Below, piece by piece: positions 490-28,063 of a DNA stretch of 32,218 nucleotides. The translations under genes were made by a program, and so were the position numbers. This stretch comes from an uncultured Clostridium sp. (GTDB lineage: Bacteria > Bacillota_I > Bacilli_A > RF39 > UBA660). Location: assembly GCA_964555985.1 (NCBI GenBank), contig CAZKUP010000001.1, positions 12,166-44,383 of the forward strand. Reading direction: 5' to 3'. Positions within the stretch are counted from its first letter, which is position 1. Every line of letters starts with the position of its first letter. The notes under the pieces are model-generated. The model saw nothing but the letters and a program-made list of their open reading frames with translations, made no database searches and had not been told where the DNA came from.

Positions 490-1299
490 ATGAAAAAATA
501 TTTATTATTAATTTTAATACTATTATTATTAACGAGCTGCAAAACTAAAGAACTTAAAGAAGAATATCCAAAATTTGTATCTAAGTGTTATGAAACAAGT
601 ATTACACAAGAAGGGTGGTTTGAATTTTTTTGTATTGAAGCGTCAAAGAAAAATGCTGAAATTAAAGATACATTGAATAATTATGAATTAGGTAATAGCA
701 CTACATATACATTTGATGGATATAACTTAAAATATAAAACATTAGATGGTTATTATATACCAATATATGATGAAAATAATATAGAAATATCTAAAGTTGA
801 GCCAATGTATCCATCTTATTCTACTTCAAAAGAAAAAAGAAGTTATATAAAATTAATAAATAATTATTTTAATGAAAAAAAGTTTAAAAATAAAATAGAT
901 ATTTCTGATTTAAAAGATTTAAATATAGATGATTCTTTAAAAGAAAAACTAGTATTATATTTTAATAATGCATTAGATTCTGAACCTAGCAATTTAGGAG
1001 AATATACAGAAATACCAGTAGTTAATATTGTAGATTCACTTATAGAAAATAATTATTATTTTAGAGTAGGTTATTATATAGAATACGGCAATATTAAAAA
1101 AATAAATATTGAAATAATATATAAAGATAAATATCTTGAAAACATTAATGAATCACATCCACTATATTCACTATATAAAAATACTAAAGAAGTTGAAAAA
1201 TGGATAATAGATAATCAAAGTTTTGATATTTCTAAATATGAAAATTATAGTAGTGATTTAGAAATATTAAATGATACTTTAAAAGGAATTATATCATGA
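490..1299 (+). CDS. Lipoprotein of unknown function, first gene of the ABC operon
   Basis: N-terminus MKKYLLLILILLLLTSC has a lipobox (L-T-S-C). The stop overlaps the next start (ATGA at 1296-1299). Confidence 0.75.
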   Translation: MKKYLLLILILLLLTSCKTKELKEEYPKFVSKCYETSITQEGWFEFFCIEASKKNAEIKDTLNNYELGNSTTYTFDGYNLKYKTLDGYYIPIYDENNIEISKVEPMYPSYSTSKEKRSYIKLINNYFNEKKFKNKIDISDLKDLNIDDSLKEKLVLYFNNALDSEPSNLGEYTEIPVVNIVDSLIENNYYFRVGYYIEYGNIKKINIEIIYKDKYLENINESHPLYSLYKNTKEVEKWIIDNQSFDISKYENYSSDLEILNDTLKGIIS

Positions 1300-3179: not shown

Positions 3180-4909
3180 TAAAATTAACTAATATTACAA
3201 AAGAATTTAATGATAATATAATACTTAACAATATTAATATAAGTTTATTTGAGAATAAAATATATTTATTGAAAGGAATTAGTGGTAGTGGTAAAACAAC
3301 ACTTTTAAATATTATTGGTTTATTGGATAGAGAATATAGTGGAGATTATTATTTTAATGAAGAAAATATTACTAGTTTAAATAATAAAGAGTTAAATAAA
3401 ATTAGAAATAATATTGGATATATATTTCAAAAAAGTTTACTTATAAAAAGTCTTAATATAAAAGATAATCTATTATTTATAAATAATGACTACGAATATA
3501 TTCTTAAATTATCAAAAGAATTTAATATAGAACATTTATTAAATAAATATCCAAAAGAACTTTCTGGTGGTGAAAGACAGAGAGTAGCGTTAGTAAGAAC
3601 ACTATTAATGGATACAGATATTATTCTATTAGATGAACCAACTAGTTCACTAGATATTAGTAATGCATTAGTTTTAGTAGAATATATTGAAAAATTAAAA
3701 GAAAAAAATAAGATAATTATAATATCTACTCATTCAAATATATTTGATAATATTGTAGATGAAATATTATATATAAAAGATGGAAGTATTAATCAAAAAG
3801 AAAATAATAACAAATATTTAAGTAATAAAAAAATAGTAAGTAAAAGAAATAATAATATAAAAATGAATATTAAATATGCATTATCTAAACAAAACATATT
3901 TAACAAATTATTAACTATATCACTTACTTCAATTGTATTTCTAATAATATTATTACTTATTTCTTTAAAATTAAATTTTAAAAGTGCATATACACAATAT
4001 TTATCCAAACAATACCCAATAAATACTTATGAAATATCTTTAGATAAATTAATGTTTATTGATAATAATGAAATACAAATATATTATAATTATTCAAATA
4101 AAATAGAAGAGGTTTATTATTTACCATTACTTAATAAAGAAGATTCAATATTTTCTAATAATAAATATTTAGATAGTGGATATTTTCCAAATAATGATAA
4201 TGAAGTTTTAGTAAATAATTTATATTTACAAAATAATGATAATGCTGATTACATAGTAATAAATAATATAAAATATAAAATAGTTGGAGTAATATCTTCT
4301 GATAATAAAATAATTAATGATATATATGAATCATGTCCATATTATATAAATGAATCTATACCACAAGTATTTATTCCATATAATAAAATAAAAAATATTT
4401 ATAATAAAATAGATAGTGATAATATAATGATTTCTACTACTAATAAAGAAGTAAAAGATATATTAAATAATTTAGGATTTTATAATAATTTTGATGATAA
4501 TATAAATAATGTAAATTATACAGTTAATCTATTTACCAATATTTTATTTATTGCAATAATATTTTTATTTGTTATTTTAATTTTTTTTATAACAAACAAT
4601 ATATTATTACACTTATATTATAGAAAAAAAGAAATAGGTTATTTACAAATATTTAATGTATCAAAAAAAAGAATAAAACATATTATTCTACTTGAATATT
4701 CTTTAAAATATATATTATCAATTATAATTTCAATAATGTTATATTTTATTACAATATTATTTATAAGACAAATATTTGGTGTTGATGTAGTACTAAATAT
4801 TGTGGAGTTTCTTTTATCAATTATATTATTTCTTATATATATTTATATTGTTATATCTATACCATTAAGTAAATATTTAAAGAAAGAAATAACTCTATTA
4901 ATAAAGTAG
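3176..4909 (+). CDS. Fused ABC transporter ATP-binding/permease protein, MacB/FtsX-type, tandem paralogue
   Basis: Walker A GISGSGKTT, signature LSGGERQR, Walker B IILLDEPTSSLD, H-loop STHS. C-terminal FtsX-like segment RKKEIGYLQIFNVSKKRIKHII plus TM helices. ATGA overlap with the upstream gene. Confidence 0.85.
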   Translation: MIKLTNITKEFNDNIILNNINISLFENKIYLLKGISGSGKTTLLNIIGLLDREYSGDYYFNEENITSLNNKELNKIRNNIGYIFQKSLLIKSLNIKDNLLFINNDYEYILKLSKEFNIEHLLNKYPKELSGGERQRVALVRTLLMDTDIILLDEPTSSLDISNALVLVEYIEKLKEKNKIIIISTHSNIFDNIVDEILYIKDGSINQKENNNKYLSNKKIVSKRNNNIKMNIKYALSKQNIFNKLLTISLTSIVFLIILLLISLKLNFKSAYTQYLSKQYPINTYEISLDKLMFIDNNEIQIYYNYSNKIEEVYYLPLLNKEDSIFSNNKYLDSGYFPNNDNEVLVNNLYLQNNDNADYIVINNIKYKIVGVISSDNKIINDIYESCPYYINESIPQVFIPYNKIKNIYNKIDSDNIMISTTNKEVKDILNNLGFYNNFDDNINNVNYTVNLFTNILFIAIIFLFVILIFFITNNILLHLYYRKKEIGYLQIFNVSKKRIKHIILLEYSLKYILSIIISIMLYFITILFIRQIFGVDVVLNIVEFLLSIILFLIYIYIVISIPLSKYLKKEITLLIK

Positions 4910-4925
4910 AGAGGAGGTGAATGTC

Positions 4926-5408
4926 GTGAAAAAAGGAATAAAATTTATAGTATGTTTGGCTTTGGTTTTAACTGTTACAAATGTCAGTGCAACATGTACA
5001 TCATTAATTAGTGGCCCAAAATTAACTCCTGGTGTAACAAACTATGGAACAAGTTATTCACTTGCAAGTGATTATGCGACAGCAAAAGGTAGCAATGCTA
5101 AGACTTTCTTTTATAATTTAGGAGCATTAACTACCAATTATGCTTCATGGACGGGGAGAGTTATAACTTATAAGTTGATGGATGTAGACGTACTAAATGC
5201 AGATGATTTGATAAAAACATATACAGGCTCATTTATTGGCAGAACACTTGATTCAATTACTCTTACTACAACACACATAAGTGGATATATTGAGTCTGAA
5301 GGTGATCATATAAGTGAATTATATCTAACAGCATATATGACAAAACATGCAGATGATCCTGCCGCAGCAGCTAATTCTACTTATGATTATCAATTATGTC
5401 AAGACTAA
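4926..5408 (+). CDS. Small secreted protein of unknown function, Cys near both mature termini
   Basis: GGAGG (4912-4916) lies 9 nt before GTG 4926; the ORF-track start at 4917 sits inside the RBS. Signal peptide VKKGIKFIVCLALVLTVTNVSA|TCTS. The mature form is about 138 aa, T/S/G/A/Y-rich, and ends ...YQLCQD. Confidence 0.7.
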   Translation: MKKGIKFIVCLALVLTVTNVSATCTSLISGPKLTPGVTNYGTSYSLASDYATAKGSNAKTFFYNLGALTTNYASWTGRVITYKLMDVDVLNADDLIKTYTGSFIGRTLDSITLTTTHISGYIESEGDHISELYLTAYMTKHADDPAAAANSTYDYQLCQD

Positions 5409-7001: not shown

Positions 7002-8062
7002 TAATGTTTCTTTTTATATAAGTATATTATTATAAATAAAATAATAAATGATAAAAGTATATAGAATAATAAATTATTTATTATAAATCTAAGTATTATT
7101 ATATTCTTATATCCGTAACAGGATATATAAATTATTATAGAAAGAATAAGAATATAAATTATAGAAAGATTTCTATTTTTAAGTTTTAATTCATTAATTA
7201 AGTAATATTTTACTATATACATGTATATTAGTATTGTATAGAAATAGTCTATTACAAAGAATAATGATAATATGTTTTCTGCATTAGATAGAAAGCTATA
7301 TTTTATTTTTTTTAGAATAAAATATACTGGGTAGTTAAAAAGAGAGGTATATGCATAGTTAAATACTGTTGTAACAAAAATAAGTATTATAAATATTGAA
7401 ATGGATGAAATAATATATCCAATTAATAAATATTTGTTATATATTTTATATGAGTCATTATTTTTTGGAATAATAGATAGAAGTATTATAGGGGAAATAG
7501 AGTATGTAATAAAGTGGAGTGATGAAGAAATTACATTTGTAAATTCATTAGTAAGAATTGGTTTTAAATTAGTTAAATCAACGTATTTTATCAGTGCAAC
7601 TGAATTTAAAAAGAATAAAATAATACTTATGTAAAACATAAATAATGCACTTCTTCCAATTGTTTCTATTCCTTTATTTACAATATATATTGCAGGTAAT
7701 ATATATAAAAGTGCAATAGCAATATTTGGTGTTTCAAATAGGTATTTAAGGGATGAAAAATTTATAAAGTCATTTAATATTATTGTAAATGAGAATACTA
7801 GAAATAGCATTATTATTAGTTTTAATATTTTTGATTTAATTAGTTCAAATAAATTTTTATTTAATTTATTAAGTTTCATTAGTATAAATATAAAACCTAG
7901 TCCTAGTATAAAACCTATTATAATAGAAATATAAGTATCTATTTTACTAATTTCTAGCATATTTTGAATACCAATACCATTATAAAAACTTCTTGATGCA
8001 AATATAACTAATATCATATATTCTAATGGATTTATTTTATTATTACTATATTCTTTTATCAA
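6998..8062 (-). CDS. Spore germination protein, Ger(x)B-type integral membrane permease subunit
   Basis: 354-aa polytopic protein with about 10 TM. It is the last gene of an A-C-B germinant-receptor operon and shares a 4-nt overlap with the C-subunit gene. Confidence 0.75.
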   Translation of the reverse strand: MIKEYSNNKINPLEYMILVIFASRSFYNGIGIQNMLEISKIDTYISIIIGFILGLGFIFILMKLNKLNKNLFELIKSKILKLIIMLFLVFSFTIILNDFINFSSLKYLFETPNIAIALLYILPAIYIVNKGIETIGRSALFMFYISIILFFLNSVALIKYVDLTNLKPILTNEFTNVISSSLHFITYSISPIILLSIIPKNNDSYKIYNKYLLIGYIISSISIFIILIFVTTVFNYAYTSLFNYPVYFILKKIKYSFLSNAENILSLFFVIDYFYTILIYMYIVKYYLINELKLKNRNLSIIYILILSIIIYISCYGYKNIIILRFIINNLLFYILLSFIILFIIIYLYKKKHY

Positions 8063-9201
8063 TATTTTTCATCTCCTTTTTTTAAAGAGGTTTTTTGAGT
8101 AAAACTAAATGTAACATCATATTCACTATTTATATTTTTAATTAAATTAGGAATAAAATCTTTATTTTTTTTATAATAATTATAATTGTTTTGATATAAA
8201 TATTTACCTATACCTATAAAATCACTATTATTTTTTTTTAGAGCATAAATTGTTTCATTAAGTACTTCTTTAATTCTATTTTCAGTTTTTCTTTCTAATT
8301 CTTTAATTATTTTTTCATTTTTAGTATTCATATTACAATTAAGTTCTGATAATGTTCCTGTTATTTTTAATTTTATTTTAATTTTATTTTCTTTATAATC
8401 ATATGTATATTTTGAAGAAGATGTAAGTAATTCTATACTTGCATAGTTATTATTATCACATTTAAAAGATATTACTGAAGATGAGGTATTATTATTTATT
8501 AAATTAAGTCCAAGTGATGCATCTGAATTTAAGTATCCAATTAATTTATCTTTATTAAATATTGCAGTATTTTTAGATAAAACCAATCTATTTTCTGGGT
8601 TAATGTCTTCATTTTTAGAATCCATTTTCTTAATATAAAGAGTAGGTAAAACAGGGTCTATTCCTTCTATTAGGGTATTAGATACAAATTCATCAAAACT
8701 TACATCTATTACATTACCTTTAAGTTCTTTAGATATTTTAATGCTTGATGATATATTTAAAGAGGGAATAGATACGAGTGGAGTAAGTACATTCATAACT
8801 TCATTTATTGGATCAGTTGTTATAATTAAATTAAAATCTTTTTCCATTTCAGCATCTCTTAATATAAAATCTATAAAATCGTTTATTCCGACTTTTGCAA
8901 TATTTTCTCCAATAATTATTGTATCTACATGTCCAATATATAATTTCTTAGGTGACTCTAATGTAATATTTCTAAATGCTTCGTGTAATGTTTTTCCTGT
9001 ACTATCATATAAAATAACACTTGGGGAGGATTTGTTGTCACTATTTTTTTGTGTAGAATCTAATACTTGTACAATTATTTTAAATTGATCTAGTTCTTTA
9101 TCAATTGATACATTAGATACCATTGCCATATCAGATAATTCTCTATAATCTCTGCAACCAGTTAATAAAAAGATAGTTATTATTAATAATATTTTTTTCA
9201 T
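8059..9201 (-). CDS. Spore germination protein, Ger(x)C-type lipoprotein subunit
   Basis: Lipobox LLTGC at the N-terminus, 380 aa, positioned between the A and B subunit genes with overlapping stop/start codons. Confidence 0.8.
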   Translation of the reverse strand: MKKILLIITIFLLTGCRDYRELSDMAMVSNVSIDKELDQFKIIVQVLDSTQKNSDNKSSPSVILYDSTGKTLHEAFRNITLESPKKLYIGHVDTIIIGENIAKVGINDFIDFILRDAEMEKDFNLIITTDPINEVMNVLTPLVSIPSLNISSSIKISKELKGNVIDVSFDEFVSNTLIEGIDPVLPTLYIKKMDSKNEDINPENRLVLSKNTAIFNKDKLIGYLNSDASLGLNLINNNTSSSVISFKCDNNNYASIELLTSSSKYTYDYKENKIKIKLKITGTLSELNCNMNTKNEKIIKELERKTENRIKEVLNETIYALKKNNSDFIGIGKYLYQNNYNYYKKNKDFIPNLIKNINSEYDVTFSFTQKTSLKKGDEKY

Positions 9202-17272: not shown

Positions 17273-19810
17273 ATGTTAGAACTTAAAAAAATTACAAAAG
17301 TTTATGATACTTTATCTTTTAAACAAACTGCTTTAAAAGATTTTAGTATAAAATTTAGACAAAATGAATTTGTATCAATTTTAGGACCAAGTGGTAGTGG
17401 TAAGACAACTCTTTTAAATATTATAGGAGGTCTTGATCATTATACTAGTGGGGATTTAATTATAAATGGAGTAAGCACTAAAGAGTATAGTGATAGAGAT
17501 TGGGATACATATAGAAATCATGAAATTGGGTTTGTATTTCAAAGTTATAATTTAATACCACATCAAACTATTTTATCTAATGTTGAGCTTGCGCTTACTT
17601 TATCTGGTGTATCTAAAAATGAAAGAAGAAAACGTGCAAAAGATGCACTTAAAAAGGTAGGTTTAATTGATCACATAGATAAAAAACCAAATCAATTATC
17701 TGGTGGTCAAATGCAAAGGGTTGCAATAGCAAGAGCACTTGTTAATAATCCATATATTCTTTTAGCAGATGAACCTACGGGTGCACTTGATTCAAAGACA
17801 AGTGAACAAATTATGGATTTATTAAAAGAAGTTGCTAAAGATAAATTAGTTATAATGGTAACTCATAATAAAGATTTAGCAGAAGCATATTCTACTAGAA
17901 TAATAGAACTTAAAGATGGAGTAATTATTAGTGACTCTAATCCTTTAAAAAAAGATGAAAAAGAAAAAGAAGGAAATTTAACTAAAAAAACATCTATGAA
18001 TTTAAAAACAGCGCTTTCTCTTAGTTTAAATAATTTAATGACTAAAAAAGGAAGAACTATTTTAACATCTTTTGCAGGTTCAATAGGTATTATAGGTATC
18101 GCACTTATTTTATCATTATCAACAGGTCTTAATAATTATATAAGTAAAGTAGAAGAAGAAACTTTATCTGTTTATCCATTAACTTTAGAAAAAACTACAA
18201 TGGATTCTGATACATTTATGACTACTTTAATGGATGCTAAAAATAATGTTAATAAAGATAAAACTAAAATATATTCTAATAATATTATGTCAGATATGTT
18301 ATCATCTATGGCAAGTGAACAAAATGTTAATGATTTAAAGAGTTTTAAAAAATATATTGAAAATAACTCTGAAATAAATAATTATGCGAGTGATATAAGA
18401 TATACTTATAATTTAAATTTAAATTTATATAAAGAAACAGATAAGGGATATGTGCAAACAAATCCAAGTACTGTATTTGAAAAAATAGGAATTGGTAGTG
18501 AAATAGCTTCATCACCTATTATGAGTATGATGAGTGAAGTTAATTCATGGACTGAATTATCAAGTAAAAAACATATTTTAGATAGAGAATATACTCTTTT
18601 AGCAGGTTCTATGCCAACAAAATATAATGAAGTAATACTTATACTTGATAAGAATAATCAAATAAGTGATTATGCACTTTATTCACTAGGACTATTAGAT
18701 CAAGAAGAATTAAATAATAGTTTAGAAAAAGTAATGAAGGGCGAAGAAATTGAAGAAAAAGAAATACATATATATGATTATGAAGATATGATAGGCCTTA
18801 CTTATAAACTAGTACTTAATACAGATTATTATAAAAAAGAAAAAGGTATATGGATAGATAAGAGTACTGATGAAAAATATATGAATAATATTTTAAAAAA
18901 TGCAGAAGAAATAAAAGTTGTTGGTGTAGTAAGATTAAGTGATGATTCTCAATCTACAACAACTGGAGTAATTGGTTATACAAATGAATTAACAAAGTAT
19001 ACAATAAATAAAATAAATGAAAGTGATATTGCTAAAGAACAAATATCTAATAAAAATAAAAATATATTTACTGGAATGAATTTTTCAAATAATTCATTTA
19101 ATATAAAAGATTTAACTAAAGAACAGCAAGCTTATTTAAGTACTTTGTCACAAGAAGAACTTGCAAAAGTAATAGCAAGTTATACTGAAAATGCTAGTAG
19201 TACTTATGAATCTAATTTAGAAAAATTAGGAATAGTTGACTTAGATGACCCATATACAATAGAATTATATCCAATAGATTTTGAATCAAAAGATGAAATA
19301 GTAAATATAATAAATGAATATAATGAAGATAAAAAAGAAGAAGATAAAATTACATATACAGATTTAGTTGGAGTAATGATGAAATCAGTTACAACAATTA
19401 TTAATGCAATAAGTTATATCTTAATAGCATTTGTAAGTATTTCCTTAGTAGTGTCATCTATAATGATTGCAATAATTACTTATATTTCAGTAATAGAAAG
19501 AACTAAAGAAATAGGTATATTAAGAGCAATTGGAGCATCTAAAAAAGATGTATCAAGAGTATTTAATGCAGAAACATTTATAGAAGGAGCATTCTCTGGT
19601 ATATTAGGTATATTAGTAACACTTCTATTAAATATACCAATTAATATAATAATTAATAATATTACAGGTATAAATAACTTATCAAAACTACCTATAAATG
19701 GTGCAATAACATTAGTTATTATATCAATAATATTAACACTTATTGCAGGACTTATACCATCTAGAATGGCAAGTAAAAAAGATCCTGTAGAAGCACTTAG
19801 AACAGAATAA
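17273..19810 (+). CDS. Fused ABC transporter ATP-binding/permease protein, MacB/FtsX-type, 845 aa
   Basis: Walker A GPSGSGKTT, Q-loop FVFQSYNLIPHQT, signature LSGGQMQR, Walker B LLADEPTGALD, H-loop VTHN. It has a large extracytoplasmic domain and a C-terminal FtsX segment ERTKEIGILRAIGASKKDVSRVF plus TM helices. Confidence 0.9.
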   Translation: MLELKKITKVYDTLSFKQTALKDFSIKFRQNEFVSILGPSGSGKTTLLNIIGGLDHYTSGDLIINGVSTKEYSDRDWDTYRNHEIGFVFQSYNLIPHQTILSNVELALTLSGVSKNERRKRAKDALKKVGLIDHIDKKPNQLSGGQMQRVAIARALVNNPYILLADEPTGALDSKTSEQIMDLLKEVAKDKLVIMVTHNKDLAEAYSTRIIELKDGVIISDSNPLKKDEKEKEGNLTKKTSMNLKTALSLSLNNLMTKKGRTILTSFAGSIGIIGIALILSLSTGLNNYISKVEEETLSVYPLTLEKTTMDSDTFMTTLMDAKNNVNKDKTKIYSNNIMSDMLSSMASEQNVNDLKSFKKYIENNSEINNYASDIRYTYNLNLNLYKETDKGYVQTNPSTVFEKIGIGSEIASSPIMSMMSEVNSWTELSSKKHILDREYTLLAGSMPTKYNEVILILDKNNQISDYALYSLGLLDQEELNNSLEKVMKGEEIEEKEIHIYDYEDMIGLTYKLVLNTDYYKKEKGIWIDKSTDEKYMNNILKNAEEIKVVGVVRLSDDSQSTTTGVIGYTNELTKYTINKINESDIAKEQISNKNKNIFTGMNFSNNSFNIKDLTKEQQAYLSTLSQEELAKVIASYTENASSTYESNLEKLGIVDLDDPYTIELYPIDFESKDEIVNIINEYNEDKKEEDKITYTDLVGVMMKSVTTIINAISYILIAFVSISLVVSSIMIAIITYISVIERTKEIGILRAIGASKKDVSRVFNAETFIEGAFSGILGILVTLLLNIPINIIINNITGINNLSKLPINGAITLVIISIILTLIAGLIPSRMASKKDPVEALRTE

Positions 19811-19836
19811 TTTATTCTGTTTTAAACTTTAGTGTG

Positions 19837-19864
19837 AAAAGATGATAATTTATCATCTTTTTTA
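19837..19864 (+). terminator. Rho-independent terminator
   Basis: AAAGATGATAA (19838-19848) pairs with TTATCATCTTT (19850-19860), running into a T-tract. Confidence 0.7.
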
Positions 19865-19885
19865 TATATCATTATATAAATAAAA

Positions 19886-19923
19886 TTTTCCAAAAGTTGT
19901 CGAATTATGACAGTTTTGGAAAA
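19886..19923. promoter_or_regulatory. 38-nt near-perfect palindrome upstream of the AAA+ ATPase fragment
   Basis: TTTTCCAAAA (19886-19895) and TTTTGGAAAA (19914-19923) flank an inner TGTC...GACA. Confidence 0.45.
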
Positions 19924-19984
19924 AAATTCTAAAACTTGACTTTTTAAAGAATTTGATATGCACTTATAACAGAGGTGATTAAAC

Positions 19985-20296
19985 ATGAAAACTATGATAG
20001 AAAGAATAGAGTATTTAGAACAATTAAAAAGGTTCAAAGATAAAGATTTAATTAAAGTTGTTACTGGAATAAGAAGATGTGGCAAGTCTACATTATTTGA
20101 ATTATTTATAAATTATTTAAAGGAAACAGGTATTAAAGATGATCAAATAATAAACATAAATCTTGAAGATGCTGATTTTAATTTTTCAGATTACAAAGAA
20201 CTATATGATTATGTAAATAAAAAAATTGAATCAAAAGAACAATATTATGTTTTCCTAGATGAAGTTCAAAATGTACCTAGATTTCAAAAAGTGTAA
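19985..20296 (+). pseudogene. 5' fragment (103 codons) of an AAA+ ATPase gene of the DUF4143-associated type
   Basis: IKVVTGIRRCGKSTLFE (Walker A) and YYVFLDEVQNVP (Walker B) match the N-terminal quarter of this roughly 400-aa family as I remember it. The ORF stops right after Walker B, at a tandem 10-mer. Confidence 0.65.
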
Positions 20297-20305
20297 AAAA
20301 GTGTA
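20286..20305 (+). repeat. Perfect tandem duplication AAAAAGTGTA x2 at the truncation point
   Basis: 20286-20295 is identical to 20296-20305. The stop codon TAA (20294-20296) spans the junction. Confidence 0.9.
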
Positions 20306-20330
20306 ATAATTATTTTTTTATATAAAAATA

Positions 20331-20359
20331 TTGAATATAAATAATTTATATGCTATAAC
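20331..20359 (+). promoter_or_regulatory. SigmaA-like promoter of the 20457 module
   Basis: TTGAAT (20331-20336), 17-nt spacer, TATAAC (20354-20359). Confidence 0.4.
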
Positions 20360-20398
20360 TAAGTCAAGAGAAGGAAGTATATATTTATTATTAAAAAA

Positions 20399-20439
20399 GA
20401 TATATAAAATTAGAAATAATTATTATATAAATATTAAAA
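20399..20439 (+). promoter_or_regulatory. Conserved 41-nt leader element, copy 1
   Basis: GATATATAAAATTAGAAATAATTATTATATAAATATTAAAA. It is 40/41 identical to 25170-25210 and ends 18 nt before ATG 20457. Confidence 0.85.
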
Positions 20440-20456
20440 GATGGGAGGTGAAATTA

Positions 20457-20942
20457 ATGAGTAAAAAGAAATATTTAACATATTGCATGTTCATTTTAGT
20501 GCTTATGTGTATTCCAACTTTTGCTAATGCAAAAGAGGTTATGCATTACTACATTTCATTAGAACCAAGAACATACGTTGAAATGAGATATGTGACAGCT
20601 ACTGAAAATTACAAATATGTTTTAAATAATGTAAATTCTACAGTTGGTGAGCCTAAAGTACATAGTTATTATCAGACTTTGTATAATGGGACTATTGTAA
20701 CTGTTGGTAAAAAGTTGAGTGTTAAAGGTGCGGGAAACGCTTATGATTCTTTATGGAAATCTAAAAATTCTACTTCAAATCCAAGTGGATATTCTATAAA
20801 TGCAAAAGATGTATGTGTAATTGGAAGTAATACAAATGCTGATTGGTGTGCTATTGAAAATAGTAGTTATAGGTTGAAAGTTGCAAACGAAAATTTACTA
20901 TATTCAATATCAATTGATGGAGCATTTACTCTTACAAATTAA
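20457..20942 (+). CDS. Small secreted protein of unknown function, about 136 aa mature
   Basis: GGGAGGTG RBS before ATG 20457; the ORF-track start at 20331 is the promoter -35 TTG. Signal peptide MSKKKYLTYCMFILVLMCIPTFANA|KEV. It has a Cys pair, CVIGSNTNADWC. Confidence 0.7.
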   Translation: MSKKKYLTYCMFILVLMCIPTFANAKEVMHYYISLEPRTYVEMRYVTATENYKYVLNNVNSTVGEPKVHSYYQTLYNGTIVTVGKKLSVKGAGNAYDSLWKSKNSTSNPSGYSINAKDVCVIGSNTNADWCAIENSSYRLKVANENLLYSISIDGAFTLTN

Positions 20943-20954
20943 AAATATTATAAT

Positions 20955-20972
20955 GAGGGAATCAATTCCCTC
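20955..20972 (+). other. Intercistronic hairpin without a T-tract
   Basis: GAGGGAAT-CA-ATTCCCTC, a perfect 8-nt inverted repeat between the secreted-protein gene and the next gene. Confidence 0.6.
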
Positions 20973-20993
20973 GTTATATAAATTGAGGTGTTT

Positions 20994-21899
20994 ATGAAAA
21001 ATAAAATATTTAAATATATAGTTATTATACTCATAATCATAGTTAGTATTTATACAGGCATTAATTTTTATAATAAAGAAAAAGCACAATATGAATTATA
21101 TGAAGAATTTAGTATGGCAAGTGAAATTATGGCATTATCATATAATAAAGATGTAGATATTTTTTATAGTGTATTAAGATTGGCAGAAACAAAAAATACA
21201 GAAACAAAAGATACTATTATCTCTCTTTTATTAGATTTAAAAGAATATGATTTTATTCCCAGTCTTAATTATCTTATCGAATTGAATGATTCTGATTCAT
21301 ATGATGGAATAATAACATTGTTACTTTTTTTGAAAAGATATAATTCTGCTACAATTAATAAAAGAGAAGATATTTTTAATAAAGAAGATACTGACTTAGG
21401 GCACAATTATAAATACACTGATGGTGTATTTAAGTTTAAAGTTACTAAGAAAGTATTAAATAAAGAGTTTTATAATGATAATTATGAGAAGTATTTAAAG
21501 AAAGAAGGTTATAGTAATTTTTTAGATAAGTTAAGTAAACTTTTATCAAAGAAATTAAATAAGTCTTATAATAATATTAAGTTTAGTATTAAGAATAATT
21601 ATGATGAGTTTTATAGTGAAAATAAAGATATAATTAATGATATTGTTTTATCTGATTTTAATGATTTTTCTAATTATTTATATGATACATATATATGTAA
21701 AGAAGAAGGTTTTTTAGCGTATTTAAAGGTTAAAATAGATGATAAATATATTGATGAAATATCTATTAATTATAATTATACTAAAGGGGAAAGAATTTAT
21801 ACTAATGTTATTAGATATTATAAATATTCTTATAATTTAGATGTTAATTATTTATGGGAACAAATGGATGAGTTAAATTATCCTAGAATATATTGTTAG
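20994..21899 (+). CDS. N-terminally membrane-anchored protein of unknown function
   Basis: A GAGG RBS precedes ATG 20994. There is a single TM (IFKYIVIILIIIVSIYTGI), followed by about 270 aa that are K/N/Y/D-rich with no recognisable motif. Confidence 0.6.
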   Translation: MKNKIFKYIVIILIIIVSIYTGINFYNKEKAQYELYEEFSMASEIMALSYNKDVDIFYSVLRLAETKNTETKDTIISLLLDLKEYDFIPSLNYLIELNDSDSYDGIITLLLFLKRYNSATINKREDIFNKEDTDLGHNYKYTDGVFKFKVTKKVLNKEFYNDNYEKYLKKEGYSNFLDKLSKLLSKKLNKSYNNIKFSIKNNYDEFYSENKDIINDIVLSDFNDFSNYLYDTYICKEEGFLAYLKVKIDDKYIDEISINYNYTKGERIYTNVIRYYKYSYNLDVNYLWEQMDELNYPRIYC

Positions 21900-21908
21900 G
21901 TGGTATGT

Positions 21909-22826
21909 ATGAGTAAAATTAAAGATTATTTTAAAAATAAGAATAATTTGATTATTATTATATTTTCTTTTGTTATATTTATTTCTATATTTTTAATATT
22001 AAAGGGAGAATTATATTATAATAATATTAATTATTTTAAAACTTATATTGAGTATTATATTGATAAATATTTAGGGGGTAATATTTCATATTTATTTTCT
22101 GATTATGATAGTAGTTTATTATTTTATGTTGAAAATGATTTACAAAATACATTATCTGCTATTTATATTTATGTATTAACTTTTAGTAATTCTTTGTTTT
22201 GGTTATTAATAATAGCTATACCAATATTAATTTTTAATAAAATACATAATGAATTTTATGATGAATTGTATAATAAATTTAGTATTAATAAAATAGTTAG
22301 AATTGGGAAGAGGAAATATATTTTTAATACAATATTTAAAAGAGGGGTATCTATTGGTTTATTATTACTTATACCTAGATTATTATATTTTCTATTGTTA
22401 TATTTATTTATGCCTAGTGGAGTATCTTATACTCATGTTTTAACTAGTATTGCATCTTTAACTAATGCATTTTTGTTCTTAAATTATAGTGTTAATCCTT
22501 ATTTATTGATTGCAATTGATTTATTAATTTCATTCCTTTATGGATTTATTATTACTGAATTGTCCTTGTTTATCATTTCTTTAATTAGAAATAAACCTCT
22601 TTCTTATCTTATATTTATATTTTCTATATGTTTATTATCTATTATTTTCTATGTATTAGGTCATCCAATAATAATATCTTTTATATCTGTGTTTACTTAT
22701 TACTCTATGTCTAATTATGATATATTTAATATAAAATGTATACTTGTAGATATTGGTGTAATAACTATATTTATGTGTATTTTAAATATATTAGTTCTTA
22801 ATATACAAGTGGGTAAGAACATATGA
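21909..22826 (+). CDS. Polytopic membrane protein, putative ABC-2-type permease component
   Basis: About 6 hydrophobic helices. AGGTGG lies 5 nt before ATG 21909; the ORF-track start is 21900. An ATGA overlap links it to the next gene. Confidence 0.55.
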   Translation: MSKIKDYFKNKNNLIIIIFSFVIFISIFLILKGELYYNNINYFKTYIEYYIDKYLGGNISYLFSDYDSSLLFYVENDLQNTLSAIYIYVLTFSNSLFWLLIIAIPILIFNKIHNEFYDELYNKFSINKIVRIGKRKYIFNTIFKRGVSIGLLLLIPRLLYFLLLYLFMPSGVSYTHVLTSIASLTNAFLFLNYSVNPYLLIAIDLLISFLYGFIITELSLFIISLIRNKPLSYLIFIFSICLLSIIFYVLGHPIIISFISVFTYYSMSNYDIFNIKCILVDIGVITIFMCILNILVLNIQVGKNI

Positions 22827-23518
22827 TTTATTTATTTAAAAAATTTCTAAAAAATAAAATATTTATAATATATATTTCATTATTTTTAGTACTTATTTAT
22901 TTAGTTAATAAATCATATTTACCTATTAAAATAGAATATATGATGGAATCTAATATTACTAATAATAATTATTTACTTTATAGTGTACTTCTTCCAATAG
23001 TATACTATGACAATTCTATATTAGAAAGTATTATATTAGATTTATCTTATTATTGTATAGTATCTTATCTTGTAGTGTCTTATGTTGATTTATTTTTTAA
23101 TGAAATGGTTAACGTAATATTTACTAAAATAAAAAGAGATATATCTATTAAAAATATATTAATATGTAATATTATATTTTCTTTTATAATAGTTCTTGGT
23201 TATATCTTATATTTTTATATTCTTTTTAGTATTAAAAAAATTGATTTTATATTTGATATAAATGTAATTATATTATTAATAATAAAAATACTTATTACTC
23301 TGTTGCTAACTAATTTATATATTAATTTATATATTAATACTAAAAATATACCAATTTCACTTATATTACCATATATGTTATATGTTGTATTTGAATTATT
23401 AATAAGACTTATTTTTAGTAATTTAAATTATATATTTGTTATTATCTTTATACTAATAATATTTAATTATTATATATATTTATCTAATAAAAAAATAATT
23501 TTAAGGAGTGATTTATGA
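22823..23518 (+). CDS. Polytopic membrane protein, putative second permease component
   Basis: 231 aa with about 6 hydrophobic helices. It has ATGA overlaps on both sides (22823, 23515). Confidence 0.55.
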   Translation: MIYLFKKFLKNKIFIIYISLFLVLIYLVNKSYLPIKIEYMMESNITNNNYLLYSVLLPIVYYDNSILESIILDLSYYCIVSYLVVSYVDLFFNEMVNVIFTKIKRDISIKNILICNIIFSFIIVLGYILYFYILFSIKKIDFIFDINVIILLIIKILITLLLTNLYINLYINTKNIPISLILPYMLYVVFELLIRLIFSNLNYIFVIIFILIIFNYYIYLSNKKIILRSDL

Positions 23519-24138
23519 TGAATTTAATAGAAATTAAAAATGTATCTAAAAAATTTAATGAAAATATTGTTGTAAATAATGTTTCATTATCAATAAAAAA
23601 GGGTAGTATAGTAGGTATAATAGGTAGGAATGGGTCAGGAAAAACAGTTCTTTTAAAAATGATATCTTCACTATATTATCCTACTGAAGGAGAGATTATT
23701 TTAAATAATGTTAACATACAAAATGATTTTGGAATACTTATAGATACAGGATTTATGAATAATATTTCTGGATATGAAAATTTAAAAATATTATCTAACT
23801 TAAATAATAAAACAAATGATTCTGATATAATTGAAATAATGAAACTAGTTACTTTAGAGCCATTTTCAAAGAAAAAATATAAAGATTATTCAACAGGTAT
23901 GAAGCAAAAATTAAAGATTGCTCAGGCAATTATGGATAAACCAAAAGTATTAATACTTGATGAACCATTTAATGGGTTAGATAAAGAAAGTGTTAAATAT
24001 TTTAGAGAATTATTTTTAAATATGAATAAAGAAGGTACGACTATAATTATTACTAGTCATTATAAAGAAGATATTGATATTTTATGCAAAGAAGTATATG
24101 AAATGGATAATGGTATTATAAATAAAATAAATATTTAA
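23515..24138 (+). CDS. ABC transporter ATP-binding protein, ABC-2 / immunity-type subfamily
   Basis: Walker A GRNGSGKT, signature variant YSTGMKQKL, Walker B VLILDEPFNGLD, H-loop TSHY. It is 207 aa with no fused permease. Confidence 0.85.
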   Translation: MMNLIEIKNVSKKFNENIVVNNVSLSIKKGSIVGIIGRNGSGKTVLLKMISSLYYPTEGEIILNNVNIQNDFGILIDTGFMNNISGYENLKILSNLNNKTNDSDIIEIMKLVTLEPFSKKKYKDYSTGMKQKLKIAQAIMDKPKVLILDEPFNGLDKESVKYFRELFLNMNKEGTTIIITSHYKEDIDILCKEVYEMDNGIINKINI

Positions 24139-24155
24139 AAATTTACAAAAAAGTA

Positions 24156-24184
24156 TTGACATTTATACTAAAATAAAATATATT
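24156..24184 (+). promoter_or_regulatory. Orphan sigmaA-like promoter
   Basis: TTGACA (24156-24161), 17-nt spacer, TATATT (24179-24184). Confidence 0.4.
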
Positions 24185-24189
24185 CATAT

Positions 24190-24326
24190 TGCTTGCAAAA
24201 ATATAATCATTTGCAAGTATCATTATTTACTTATTTTTTATTTATTTTGTTTTGTTCTATTCTTATCTGTCATGTTACTAAGAATAGATATGTCTAGCCT
24301 CTATTAAAAAAGATAGAGGCTTTTTG
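24190..24326 (+). ncRNA. Candidate small structured RNA or orphan leader: three hairpins, the last a terminator
   Basis: Hairpins: CTTGCAAA/TTTGCAAG (24192-24217); TCTATTCTTA/TAAGAATAGA (24256-24288, a perfect 10 bp); AGCCTCTAT/ATAGAGGCT plus TTTTT (24296-24325). There is no ORF of 60 aa or more on either strand. Confidence 0.3.
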
Positions 24327-24497
24327 TTATATGAAGCAAAGATTGTAATATATGTTTAAATATTAATAAGCTAGTTAATAATAGTTAGATAAAATTATAA
24401 TGTGTATTATTTATAAATATCCCTAGCTCATATGGTATAAGTAATAAACTATTTTGAATGAAAATTTTTACTAACAATACCGAACACGAGTTTGTAG

Positions 24498-25082
24498 ATA
24501 AGCAGATTATATGGAAATAAAACTATAAAAGTTAAAATAAATGAAAGTAATATATATAAATTAGATTGTTTATATGATAATCCACATGTAGAAAAAATAA
24601 TAGAAAATCATTTAAATAATAATGAATTTGAATATAAAATTATTATAAATAAATTTAATAATATGGAATCTGTATTAAATATTTTAGAAGATTTGAATTT
24701 AAATATTATTTTAAAAAGTGATATCAATTATAATCAAAATTTTATAAATTTAATCCCAATATTCAAGTTGTTTATTATAATAATTTATATGTTTTTTATA
24801 TTATATTCAATTATTATTGTAAAAAATGTTATTAAAAAAGAAAAAAACAAAATATTTGTATTAAAAACTATAGGCTATAGTAATAGAAATATAAACAAAA
24901 TAATAAACAGTATCTTATTTTTTATTATTAATAATTGCTTTATTGTGAATATAATAATTGTATTATTAAGTATGATATTTCTACACAATACAATTCCATT
25001 TATTACATGGAACTTAAGTAGAAAAGCTATTATATTATTTACTAACTATATTATTTTTATAGTTTCTTTGATATTAGTGTGA
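24498..25082 (+). pseudogene. 3' remnant of a MacB/FtsX-type permease gene, lacking the ATPase domain and TM1
   Basis: The frame is open from 24498, after TAG at 24495-24497. It encodes the end of an extracytoplasmic domain, then TM-KKEKNKIFVLKTIGYSNRNINKII-TM-TM, which is the FtsX C-terminal architecture. The first in-frame ATG is 24663, with no RBS. Confidence 0.6.
24949..25076 (+). repeat. Direct repeat copy A (permease 3' end)
   Basis: 128 nt with no indels and about 13 mismatches against 26723-26850, by hand alignment. Confidence 0.9.
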
Positions 25083-25105
25083 ATTAAAACTTAGAAAATT
25101 GAATA

Positions 25106-25134
25106 TTGACTACCAAAAAAAATTGTAGTATATT
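25106..25134 (+). promoter_or_regulatory. SigmaA-like promoter of the metzincin cassette
   Basis: TTGACT (25106-25111), 17-nt spacer, TATATT (25129-25134). Confidence 0.45.
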
Positions 25135-25169
25135 TTATTTGAAGATATGATATGAAAGTTTGCTAATGG

Positions 25170-25210
25170 GATATATAAAATTAGAAATAATTTTTATATA
25201 AATATTAAAA
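25170..25210 (+). promoter_or_regulatory. Conserved 41-nt leader element, copy 2
   Basis: GATATATAAAATTAGAAATAATTTTTATATAAATATTAAAA. It ends 23 nt before ATG 25233. Confidence 0.85.
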
Positions 25211-25232
25211 AAGGAAGAGGTGATATAAACTT

Positions 25233-25835
25233 ATGAAAAAAAAATTAAAGAATATTTTGCTTTTCGCTATAGTTTTGCTTGTACCAATAAATTTTGCAAA
25301 AGCAGAAACTGCACCACCATGGATTAATGCAAAATATACAAGAGGAATAGATAGAATTTCTTGGTATATGTCATACGAAGATAATGGCGGTTGGTATGAA
25401 AATTTAATTATTAAAGCACTTAATAATTGGATGCAACCAGGTTGGTATAATCCTATAGTGTTTGTAGCAGCAAGTAGCAATGCGGGTACTATGATGGATA
25501 TATATTCAAAACCAAGTACATTTTGGAGATCGTATGTCCCATCAGCAGAAACAAGACATTATGATGGCTCTGATAATCAGTTGAAACCTAATACAAGTGG
25601 TAAATTATCTCAAGATTATGTATTTACAAGAGTTTTTCTAAATGATGATCAATTGCATAATCTACCTGCTGATTTATTGCAGGGAGTTATTGCTCATGAA
25701 GTAGGGCATACACTTGGATTAGATGAAAATAATACTAATAGATATAGTATTATGTGTCAATATTTAAATGGTACAAGGCTAGTAAATACGGTTCAAAAAA
25801 TTGATAATGACACAGTTGTAAGTATTTATAGTTAG
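25233..25835 (+). CDS. Secreted minimal zinc metalloprotease, metzincin-like
   Basis: Signal peptide MKKKLKNILLFAIVLLVPINFAKA|ETAPP. It has the zinc motif HEVGHTLGLDEN (HExxHxxG) and a downstream Met-turn candidate, RYSIMCQY. The mature form is about 176 aa. Confidence 0.75.
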   Translation: MKKKLKNILLFAIVLLVPINFAKAETAPPWINAKYTRGIDRISWYMSYEDNGGWYENLIIKALNNWMQPGWYNPIVFVAASSNAGTMMDIYSKPSTFWRSYVPSAETRHYDGSDNQLKPNTSGKLSQDYVFTRVFLNDDQLHNLPADLLQGVIAHEVGHTLGLDENNTNRYSIMCQYLNGTRLVNTVQKIDNDTVVSIYS

Positions 25836-25845
25836 GGAGGAACTT

Positions 25846-26556
25846 ATGAAAAAAAGGAATTTATTAATAATATTTGTATTTATATTTGTAATATCTATTT
25901 GTTTGGTTTTGAATAATAAGAAAGATATGAAATTTGATACAAATAATGATAATGCGAATGATGATGTTGTAATTGATATAAATCAATATGCATATGTTGA
26001 GTATCTATATGATTTAAATGATAAGAATGTATTAACTGATTTATTTGATTATATTGCAATAATAAAAATTAAATCTGTTGATGGAGTAGATAACTATGAT
26101 TATGTTTCTAATGATTATGTGAGTCCTTATACTTATGGTAAGGCGGAGGTTTTAAAAGTGATTAAAGGCAATATTTCTAATAAAGAAATAAGTTATAATA
26201 GATTGGGTGGTAAAATATCTTTTACAAAATATATAGAAGGCGAAGAATATAAACCCGTCGACTTTAAGAGAATATATAATATTAGTAATATTGATGATAG
26301 CAAAATAATCATAAATGCAACTTATTCAAAAGATATTGATATAGAACCTGGGAAAATTTATTTAGCATTTTTAGAGTATAAAGAGGGTGTTAATAGAGAA
26401 AACGAATATTGGATAGGTGGTATGGAATATGGACTTAGGGAATTAAGTGATAGTAATATTTCAATAAATAATATAGACACTATAAAAGTAAGAAATAATA
26501 CTACTAAAAAATATGAATCTATTAATGAAGTTATAAATTTAGATATTAAAAAATAA
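25846..26556 (+). CDS. Membrane-anchored or secreted protein of unknown function, co-transcribed with the metalloprotease
   Basis: A GGGAGG RBS precedes it. The N-terminal hydrophobic segment is LLIIFVFIFVISICLVL. It lies 10 nt downstream of the protease stop. Confidence 0.6.
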   Translation: MKKRNLLIIFVFIFVISICLVLNNKKDMKFDTNNDNANDDVVIDINQYAYVEYLYDLNDKNVLTDLFDYIAIIKIKSVDGVDNYDYVSNDYVSPYTYGKAEVLKVIKGNISNKEISYNRLGGKISFTKYIEGEEYKPVDFKRIYNISNIDDSKIIINATYSKDIDIEPGKIYLAFLEYKEGVNRENEYWIGGMEYGLRELSDSNISINNIDTIKVRNNTTKKYESINEVINLDIKK

Positions 26557-27410: not shown

Positions 27411-27863
27411 ATGGATAAGTTTAAAAGGAGTTTAAATGGTTATAATGTTGATGAGGTAAATGCTTTTATTGATGATGTTATAAGTAAATTAGAAGCAATT
27501 ATAAAGGAAGAAAAGCAAATTAAGAATGAAATAAAAATGAAGGACATTAAAATAAAGGATTTAGAGAATATCGTTGAACATTATAAAAAAATTGAAAATG
27601 AAATGAACGCCTCAATTAATAATGCTAAAGAAAGTGAAGAATCTTTAAAAAGACTTGCAAAATCTGAAAGAGATGATATAATAAATGAAGCAAGGCAAAA
27701 TGCAAATAGAATTATAAGTGATGCTCTTATGCGTGCTGAGAAAATTGAGTATAAGACTGAACTTTTAAAGAAAAACATAGTGTCTTATAAGAATAGGGTA
27801 AGAATTATGTTGAATCAGCAATTAGATATGATTGATGATTTGGATGAAGAAAATGTAAATTAA
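27411..27863 (+). CDS. divIVA: DivIVA-domain cell division protein
   Basis: The N-terminal FKRSLNGYNVDEVNAFIDDV motif is followed by a coiled-coil region. It is positioned between sepF and ileS, as in other Firmicutes. Confidence 0.8.
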   Translation: MDKFKRSLNGYNVDEVNAFIDDVISKLEAIIKEEKQIKNEIKMKDIKIKDLENIVEHYKKIENEMNASINNAKESEESLKRLAKSERDDIINEARQNANRIISDALMRAEKIEYKTELLKKNIVSYKNRVRIMLNQQLDMIDDLDEENVN

Positions 27864-27876
27864 ATGATGGAGACGG

Positions 27877-28063
27877 TGTATTATGATTCTTTTTAGAGAG
27901 CTTTTGGTTGGTGAGAAAAAAGTAAGATAATAGTATACAAATCACTCTTGATAATTCTTTCTGATGAGGAAAGAACGAGTTATTTCGTTATAAATTAAAA
28001 GTGCATAGAATCTATGAACTAAGGTGGTACCGTTCTTTTGAACCCTTAGATTATAGATTTTTT
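27877..28063 (+). promoter_or_regulatory. T-box leader with Ile (AUC) specifier, including promoter and terminator
   Basis: Extended -10 TGTATTAT (27877-27884). Stem I elements AGAGAG, GGTGAGA and AGTA are present. ATC followed by A lies at 27941-27944. The T-box core is AACTAAGGTGGTACCG (28017-28032). The terminator arms TCTATGAACTAAGG (28011-28024) and CCTTAGATTATAGA (28044-28057) are followed by TTTTTT. Confidence 0.8.

Follow-up and report, generated by a model that had tools for sequence, protein, structure and literature searches.

The locus examined here raises the question of what a small exported protein does when its gene stands at the head of a set of ATP-binding cassette (ABC) transporter genes. 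Five co-oriented genes, designated sec, anch, perm1, perm2 and ATPase, occupy positions 20457–24138 of the plus strand in a 32,218-nucleotide stretch of contig CAZKUP010000001.1 (assembly GCA_964555985.1) from an uncultured Clostridium sp.; this whole stretch is referred to as the window. An earlier note, prepared from the letters of the DNA alone, had proposed a secreted effector or protein bacteriocin with a dedicated immunity or export ABC system. The analysis described below indicates that sec is linked in other genomes to the same set of four genes (the “core”). By analogy with known systems, we favor the reading that the cassette encodes a Sec-dependent protein bacteriocin and a LanFEG(H)-like immunity transporter, and that core-only copies elsewhere are orphan immunity cassettes. 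The probability of this reading is estimated to be approximately 45%.

The five products and their families

All of the products that had been described for the locus are present: a 161-residue secreted protein (136 residues when mature) with a pair of cysteines, a 301-residue anchored protein, two permeases with approximately six transmembrane segments each, and a 207-residue ATPase. The sec gene lies at 20457–20942 (plus strand), as judged from its start codon, ribosome-binding site and signal peptide. The mechanically called open reading frame (20331–20942) begins at an upstream TTG, and the real start is the ATG at 20457, which is located 8 nucleotides past the ribosome-binding site GGGAGGTG. 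The product has an N-terminal hydrophobic stretch followed by an AxA-type cleavage site between FANA and KE. This is a type I signal peptide, and the protein carries neither a lipobox nor a wall anchor. The mature form has a mass of approximately 15 kDa and an isoelectric point (pI) of 8.5, and its cysteines are arranged as C120-x10-C131 (CVIGSNTNADWC).

For a census of the secreted-protein family, HMMER was run against all 1.84 billion representatives (50%-identity clusters) with a threshold of E ≤ 0.001. It returned 27 matching clusters, of which 26 are credible; the spurious one, P0034 (1292 residues), is a low-complexity repeat protein and was discarded. The members are 154–170 residues long apart from one 62-residue fragment, and the representative of the window’s own cluster is annotated from the upstream TTG with 203 residues. 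Their alignment shows the signal peptide, near-invariant C120 and C131, Y138, N144, and many conserved aromatic residues (Tyr and Trp) and asparagines. Exactly two cysteines are found in 24 of the 26 mature members, which are mostly basic (median pI 8.8). The secreted protein gave no Pfam or NCBIfam match at E < 0.1 except a chance-level one to DUF7908, and profile searches of Protein Data Bank (PDB) sequences with the family gave chance-level matches only. Pattern scans for the family found no instance in GTDB species genomes or IMG/VR viral contigs, and a tblastn search of plasmids gave no match. A profile search of a word-indexed database with the full family alignment returned five proteins only. 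The 161-residue protein is the founder of an unannotated family.

The structure of the secreted protein was predicted with AlphaFold2. A run with a three-sequence alignment was unusable, having a predicted local distance difference test score (pLDDT) of 39, and was replaced by a run with the 26-sequence alignment, which produced a confident all-beta model (pLDDT 92.3, predicted template modeling score 0.81). The model is a β-sandwich of the jelly-roll or carbohydrate-binding module (CBM)-like type, i.e., galactose-binding-like. Foldseek matches to the model were weak (E from ~1e-4 to 1e-2, TM-score 0.4–0.58). They included accessory domains of GH50 agarase, CBM6, CBM61 and the CBM of Ruminococcus Cel9A, as well as domains of Cry5B and Cry4Ba, PirA, the furin P domain, and phage tail-tip and fiber domains. 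The likeness to CBM6, CBM61 and the Cel9A CBM is one of fold only (E 1e-3 to 1e-2, TM-score 0.4–0.55), with no match in sequence. The predicted fold class is thus clear, but the weak matches identify no functional relative.

Directly 3′ of the sec stop codon lies an intercistronic stem-loop (20949–20978, plus strand) with a 13-bp stem, which includes one G·U pair, a 4-nucleotide loop and no U-tract. The 8-nucleotide perfect inverted repeat without a T-tract at 20955–20972, which had been noticed earlier, is real and forms the core of this longer stem. The folding energy is −16.6 kcal/mol (z = −4.2 against shuffled sequences). Stem-loops stand directly after sec in five of the six loci that were folded (the window, L002, L008, L013 and L015), the one in L017 being weak, and they are unrelated in sequence between loci. 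The element is likely a partial terminator or a transcript stabilizer.

The anch gene (20994–21899, plus strand) encodes a 301-residue signal-anchored protein with one N-terminal transmembrane segment. The N-terminus is predicted to be inside, followed by an extracytoplasmic domain of ~270 residues, and a conserved C-terminal YP(K/R)IY motif was observed in the nine-member alignment. No family was shared by the nine homologues in a Pfam search. All cassettes of sufficient length include its gene, mostly in the last place, and the protein is probably an accessory subunit of the transporter core.

The two permease genes are perm1 (21909–22826, plus strand; 305 residues) and perm2 (22823–23518, plus strand; 231 residues), each with approximately six transmembrane segments by hydropathy. 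ATGA overlaps join perm1 to perm2 (22823–22826) and perm2 to the ATPase gene (23515–23518), and these two overlaps bear out the linkage that had been described for the last three genes. In perm1, conservation is seen in the loop YYIDKYLGGN on the outside and in the basic stretch RIGKRKYI on the cytoplasmic side. It is near the latter that perm1 and perm2 resemble each other, weakly and locally (hhalign probability 55%, E 1e-4). The hydropathy profiles and the positive-inside distribution of charges are consistent with ABC-2 permeases having six transmembrane segments, an inside N-terminus and a large first outside loop. Neither permease had a Pfam or NCBIfam match at E < 0.1, including models of the MutE/MutG type, and nothing above chance level was obtained when profiles of the anchored, perm1 and perm2 families were searched against PDB sequences.

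The last gene (23515–24138, plus strand) encodes a short ABC ATPase of 207 residues (Pfam ABC_tran, 3e-30). Its motifs are GRNGSGKT, YSTGMKQKL and VLILDEPFNGLD, and the Walker A, signature, Walker B and H-loop elements are intact. The top NCBIfam model is the lantibiotic-protection model TIGR03740, with an E value of 8.7e-49 and 166.2 bits against a cut-off of 309.75. The DrrA and PmtC models rank next and are also below their cut-offs, and TIGR03608 scores 99.8 bits against a cut-off of 254.85. The nearest solved relatives are ABCA3 and ABCA1 (1e-39 to 1e-35) and PmtCD (6xjh; 2e-31 over the full length). Sequence comparison places the ATPase in the ABCA/ABCG/DrrA/PmtC-like subfamily of ABC-2 (type V) exporters, and it is short, lacking the C-terminal substrate-binding domain of Wzt/TagH-type proteins. 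The label “ABC-2-type” used earlier is thus supported by the ATPase only, through its PmtCD and ABCA relatives; the permeases have no direct Pfam match.

In the alignment with ABCA3, Asp74 of the ATPase (LIDTGF) stands opposite the Q-loop Gln. An aspartate at this position is invariant (10 of 10 cassettes). Replacement of the Q-loop Gln by Glu, the E-loop (Glu76 in LanF), is a hallmark of LanF proteins, and the LanF E-loop is required for immunity and dispensable for ATP hydrolysis (bioRxiv 10.1101/2025.10.09.681468). The position in the cassette ATPases is thus acidic as in LanF, yet occupied by Asp where LanF has Glu. The closest annotated relatives of the ATPase, with 46–49% identity, are encoded on plasmids of Clostridium perfringens, C. 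tetani, C. botulinum, C. novyi, C. tyrobutyricum and Priestia, and Glu was found at the Q-loop position in all three plasmid ATPases read (MIEKPGF, IIESPGF and LIEHPGF).

Searches of Pfam, NCBIfam, PADLOC, PHROGs and PDB sequences returned no match for any of the four non-ATPase proteins and so placed none of them in a housekeeping, nutrient or drug-exporter family; a placement of that kind was what the earlier note had named as telling against an effector. The four represent unannotated protein families, and for one of these the fold is now predicted with confidence.

Related cassettes in other genomes

BLASTP and profiles of the five families served to annotate the loci. Among ten further lineages of the secreted family with readable flanks, nine have the complete core beside sec, and the contig of the tenth (L025) ends after perm2, so that its cassette is partial. 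The co-occurrence of sec with the permease and ATPase genes, which had been suggested as a check, is therefore seen in all readable lineages, in L025 as far as its contig extends. The five-gene loci are the window and L011, L002/L003, L008, L013, L015, L017, L021, L023/L024, L026 and L028. Every gene of the sec family with readable downstream DNA precedes the core, even where the secreted proteins share only ~20–30% identity. L013 is from Clostridium sp. CAG:609, and related cassettes also come from metagenome-assembled genomes (MAGs) of uncultured Bacilli; the titles of a rabbit-gut MAG and of human-gut CAG genomes indicate that at least some of the hosts are animal-gut bacteria.

Three lineages carry the core without sec (L012, L014 and L009/L010). 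In particular, L009/L010 are 92.8% identical in DNA to the window from position 20975 onward. Comparison of L009 positions 1–860 with window positions 20300–20993 showed that sec and the hairpin are replaced by the gene of an unrelated, family-less 215-residue lipoprotein. The identities between the L009 and window proteins are 78% for the anchored protein, 94% for perm1, 97% for perm2 and 98.5% for the ATPase. Because the anchored protein is at 78% and the rest are at 94–98.5%, the replaced tract seems to reach the start of anch.

The usual gene order is sec-perm1-perm2-ATPase-anch, and anch is shifted to the second place in one clade, to which the window, L002 and L009 belong. The neighbors of the cassette vary among the loci compared (rbfA, xseB, iPGM and a broken AAA_14 gene), in line with the previous description of the module as accessory. 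The cassette is an accessory, mobile unit with a rare and patchy distribution. A megablast search of plasmids with the whole module gave no match. Glycosyltransferase, polymerase and wall-synthesis genes are absent from all cassettes examined, and neither a lanthipeptide precursor gene nor lanthipeptide modification genes occur in the window or any related locus.

Regulators often adjoin the cassettes, namely XRE-type helix-turn-helix proteins, an extracytoplasmic function (ECF) sigma factor and one two-component system. The XRE-type proteins of L012 and L013 have a transmembrane segment and a large C-terminal domain, and those of L015 and L023 are small. L013 has a response regulator and a histidine kinase, and L015 has the ECF sigma factor followed by an uncharacterized membrane protein. 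The regulator sites are at 4061–6948 of L013, 6729–7808 and 11282–12652 of L012, 1826–2266 and 6507–7812 of L015, and 8645–9010 of L023. L015 also encodes two secreted proteins of 244 and 290 residues (1061–1795 and 7885–8757) that have a common C-terminal Y-x-F-S-[NS]-N-G-x-G-G-V motif and belong to no known family.

Candidate functions of the cassette

The cassette looks like a bacteriocin with an ABC immunity system because the exported protein is set off by a hairpin, the core is LanF-like, the linkage is strict, core-only copies exist and the distribution is patchy. If so, the small product of the first gene would exit the cell by the Sec pathway. Outside, this ~15-kDa, mildly basic and aromatic-rich protein would fold as a disulfide-stapled jelly-roll and act against related bacteria at their envelope, where its most probable ligand would be a glycan-bearing component. 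The stem-loop would keep the toxin transcript far above the downstream message. The four other products would form a heteromeric ABC machine consisting of two ATPase copies, the two different permeases and the anchored ectodomain protein, and this machine would protect the producer in the manner of LanFEG(H). The anchored protein may capture the secreted protein once it is at the cell surface; the acidic loop of the ATPase (the “D-loop”) would then drive the permeases, which may dislodge the secreted protein from the membrane or from its target. Strains with only the four-gene core would be immune non-producers.

Several points weigh against a bacteriocin. The jelly-roll fold is generic, being common to CBMs, Cry domain III, PirA and phage fiber tips, and most such domains are non-toxic. 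The known substrates of LanFEG transporters are peptides of ~3 kDa and not folded 15-kDa proteins. No relatives of perm2 or the anchored protein were detected, and perm1 has only a 21-bit link to the permeases of Clostridium cassettes. The secreted proteins of the window and L002 are 61% identical whereas the permeases are 44–49% identical, which an arms race would not predict. In addition, the core-only cassettes would fit a secreted protein that is a dispensable helper equally well. The effector and immunity hypothesis of the earlier note is partly supported: the linkage and the absence of any housekeeping family speak for it, but the secreted protein is a candidate toxin with the predicted fold of a generic jelly-roll.

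The helper role leads to the explanation that survives best beside the bacteriocin, although it is unlikely: a resistance module in which a LanFEG/CprABC-like pump acts against antimicrobial peptides or proteins of other organisms, while the jelly-roll protein, dispensable and outside the cell, binds and sequesters the foreign agent in a LanI-like way. The core is conserved without sec in the three lineages mentioned above, the two-component system and the XRE-type membrane regulators flank some cassettes as at Cpr- and Bce-type loci, and LanI proteins bind the substrate in cooperation with LanFEG (PMC4239024). However, a secreted protein without a lipobox or wall anchor would diffuse away as a public good, and the promoter-proximal, hairpin-set-off position of sec is that of a main product, not of a helper. 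Furthermore, all 11 lineages seen have sec together with the core, which is complete in 10 of them.

An envelope-building module is somewhat less probable still. According to this explanation, the core would export or flip a lipid-linked glycan or another envelope component, and the CBM-like protein would bind that exported polymer on the cell’s own surface, for example in wall remodeling, adhesion or spore-surface assembly. ABC-2-type exporters commonly move glycopolymers, Foldseek’s best matches among small domains are CBM6, CBM61, the CBM of Cel9A and the domain of GH50 agarase, and the conserved positions of the secreted family include many Tyr, Trp and Asn. On the other hand, no cassette contains the glycosyltransferase, polymerase or wall-synthesis genes, the distribution is rare and patchy with differing insertion sites, and the short ATPase has a LanF-like acidic loop in place of a Wzt/TagH-type C-terminal domain.

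A host- or eukaryote-directed toxin component, i.e., a PirA- or Cry-domain-III-like receptor binder for host or protozoan cells with the ABC proteins as a self-protection or export aid, is very improbable: PirA (7fcn and 3x0t; TM-score 0.54–0.58 on the target) and the Cry5B/Cry4Ba domains are among the Foldseek matches and at least some hosts are animal-gut bacteria, but these matches are weak and common to many non-toxic jelly-rolls, no PirB-like or pore-forming partner is encoded, and a toxin without action on bacteria would need no membrane ABC protection.

We tentatively extend the bacteriocin reading to a class of protein toxins not recognized before, in which uncultured gut Firmicutes would export a disulfide-stapled jelly-roll by the Sec pathway. 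These toxins would be hard-wired to a four-component “D-loop” ABC machine that pulls a folded 15-kDa protein off its envelope target, and core-only strains would be immune cheaters. If the bacteriocin reading is true, four families without relatives in Pfam, NCBIfam or solved structures would gain a function together, and the Gram-positive bacteriocins would gain a class of jelly-roll proteins. Standard genome-mining tools would be blind to such a class because they seek peptides, modification enzymes and known domains. The LanFEG principle would be extended from peptides to folded proteins, with a bearing on whether LanFEG-like pumps expel their substrate or protect its target. Producer-type and core-only strains, which share 93% DNA identity, would provide a natural test of toxin and immunity ecology in gut communities. 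If the reading is wrong, the cassette remains a tightly conserved mobile five-gene unit in poorly studied bacteria.

Setting of the cassette and comparison with known systems

The window has a G+C content of ~20% and a chromosomal setting. It also holds a gerA-type germination operon, sepF, divIVA, and a T-box leader (27855–28050; Rfam RF00230, 97.8 bits), an ordinary one, upstream of ileS. The low G+C content and the gerA operon indicate that the host is a very AT-rich, spore-forming Firmicute. The flanks of the module agree with those reported before, i.e., an AAA gene cut after Walker B on one side and a permease remnant on the other. On the left, a truncated AAA_14 ATPase gene of 103 residues (19985–20296, plus strand) ends after Walker B (Pfam AAA_14, 7e-18, profile positions 3–79 of 129) and marks the left boundary of the accessory segment. 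The same fragment is present in contig L011, which is 99.8% identical to the window. On the right, a 139-residue open reading frame (24663–25082, plus strand) is the remnant of an FtsX-type permease comprising the C-terminal domain only. It has no Pfam match by itself and is ~30% identical (E 3e-9) to residues 444–564 of the window’s 577-residue ABC-FtsX fusion. This remnant lies within the accessory segment and outside the cassette.

An intrinsic terminator (24296–24321, plus strand) with a 10-bp stem followed by TTTTGTT closes the transcription unit; it is the sole terminator-like site in 19700–25300, where 0.3 are expected. Assignment of a promoter was rejected, as promoter-like sites in this AT-rich DNA occur at chance level (73 against 71 expected), and for this reason the single promoter claimed by the earlier note is not verifiable. 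An Rfam scan of the leader and the whole module detected no RNA family, and no second copy of any module protein was found within the window. PADLOC and PHROGs searches of the module returned nothing specific, which argues that it is neither a phage-defense nor a phage module.

A 41-nucleotide direct repeat occurs just upstream of the sec Shine-Dalgarno sequence (20399–20439, plus strand) and again before the ribosome-binding site of a secreted Zn-metalloprotease gene (25170–25210, plus strand). The copies are identical at 40 of 41 positions and are the only two in the window, with 0 expected by chance. A −35-like ATATTGA(A/C)T sequence lies ~65 nucleotides further upstream of each copy, including TTGAAT at 20332 and TTGACT at the matching relative position before the second copy. 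The element could be a shared operator or leader, so that both secreted proteins would be co-regulated. Alternatively, the copies could be the ends of a 4771-bp segment comprising the cassette and the FtsX remnant, created by insertion or duplication.

The metalloprotease gene (25233–25835) encodes 200 residues with an HEVGH motif and weak Peptidase_M10 and Met-zincin matches, and it is followed by the gene of a 236-residue membrane-anchored protein of no family, the pair spanning 25233–26556. Located between the cassette and sepF, both genes may belong to the same accessory island. Another set of secreted-protein and ABC genes is present at 490–5408 of the window, consisting of a 269-residue lipoprotein, tandem ABC-ATPase/FtsX fusions (627 and 577 residues) and a family-less 163-residue signal-peptide protein. 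A third, MacB-like fusion (845 residues) is encoded at 17273–19810.

A literature search found no publication describing this cassette. Among known systems, dysgalacticin and streptococcin A-M57 (non-lytic class III bacteriocins) are likewise unmodified proteins with Sec signals and an adjacent immunity determinant. They are heat-labile proteins of 17–21 kDa and have no sequence relationship to the secreted protein. Immunity to them is conferred by one small membrane protein (DysI) instead of an ABC machine, and they are not known to share the jelly-roll fold predicted here. Dysgalacticin is a Sec-dependent protein bacteriocin of 21.5 kDa (PMC8308785).

The lactococcin 972 system resembles the cassette in that an unmodified product is encoded first and is followed by dedicated ABC genes without processing or modification genes; the bacteriocin itself carries no modification, and its putative immunity system is of the ABC type (PMC4055356). 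The secreted protein of the cassette is twice as large, its permease is not of the DUF1430 or seven-transmembrane FtsX-like type, and its ATPase is not of the TIGR03608 class. Lactococcin 972 is Sec-exported and has a β-sandwich fold. No Lactococcin_972 domain was matched in Pfam or NCBIfam, and no lactococcin 972 entry appeared among the 50 Foldseek PDB matches listed. As it differs in domain, in type of permease and in class of ATPase, the cassette is not a lactococcin 972 system.

The likeness to LanFEG(H) transporters (NisFEG, NukFEGH, EpiFEGH, As-48EFGH and the orphan CprABC) extends further. Both have a short ATPase, two different permeases with six transmembrane segments and an additional membrane-anchored accessory protein (NukH and As-48F are the LanFEG examples). 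In both, an acidic residue stands in place of the Q-loop Gln, and the LanF model is the best NCBIfam match. The transporter genes adjoin the gene of the exported product, and transporter-only copies occur in non-producers. A review covers LanFEG(H) and As-48EFG(H) together with orphan LanFEG homologues, of which CprABC is one, that occur in non-producers (PMC4239024). The differences are that the loop residue is Asp and not Glu, the ATPase is below the cut-off, the permeases do not match a LanE or LanG model, and the partner is a folded Sec-exported 15-kDa protein instead of a modified peptide of ~3 kDa. Given the sub-cut-off ATPase, the Asp loop, the unmatched permeases and the lack of lanthipeptide genes, the cassette is LanFEG(H)-like and not a member. 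The resemblance to LanFEG that had been proposed is strengthened by the acidic loop, the plasmid E-loop relatives and the core-only cassettes, while strict LanFEG membership fails.

The Clostridium plasmid cassettes that encode the ATPase relatives were examined in C. perfringens (L018, NZ_CP102304), C. tyrobutyricum (L097, NZ_CP047468) and C. tetani (L020, pE88). Two of them consist of a Sec-secreted head protein (~110 residues when mature), three permeases and an E-loop ATPase, and the head is absent in pE88. One cassette ends with a dedicated signal peptidase I, and one is located beside cpb2 and a DUF1430 bacteriocin-type permease. The first permease of the plasmid cassettes matches the perm1 profile distantly (E ~1e-7, 21 bits). 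The first permease of C. tetani has a sub-threshold match to ABC2_membrane_4 (E 0.003), and perm1 has no detectable match to that permease (E 0.31). Perm2 and the anchored protein have no link to the plasmid permeases. The plasmid head proteins failed the homology tests as relatives of the secreted family and belong to a different family. The plasmid cassettes look like a sister class of the five-gene cassette: both place a short ATPase at the end, after several unannotated permeases, and a secreted head protein is present in two of the plasmid cassettes, whereas these have three permeases in place of two permeases and an anchored protein, and a Glu in place of the Asp in the loop.

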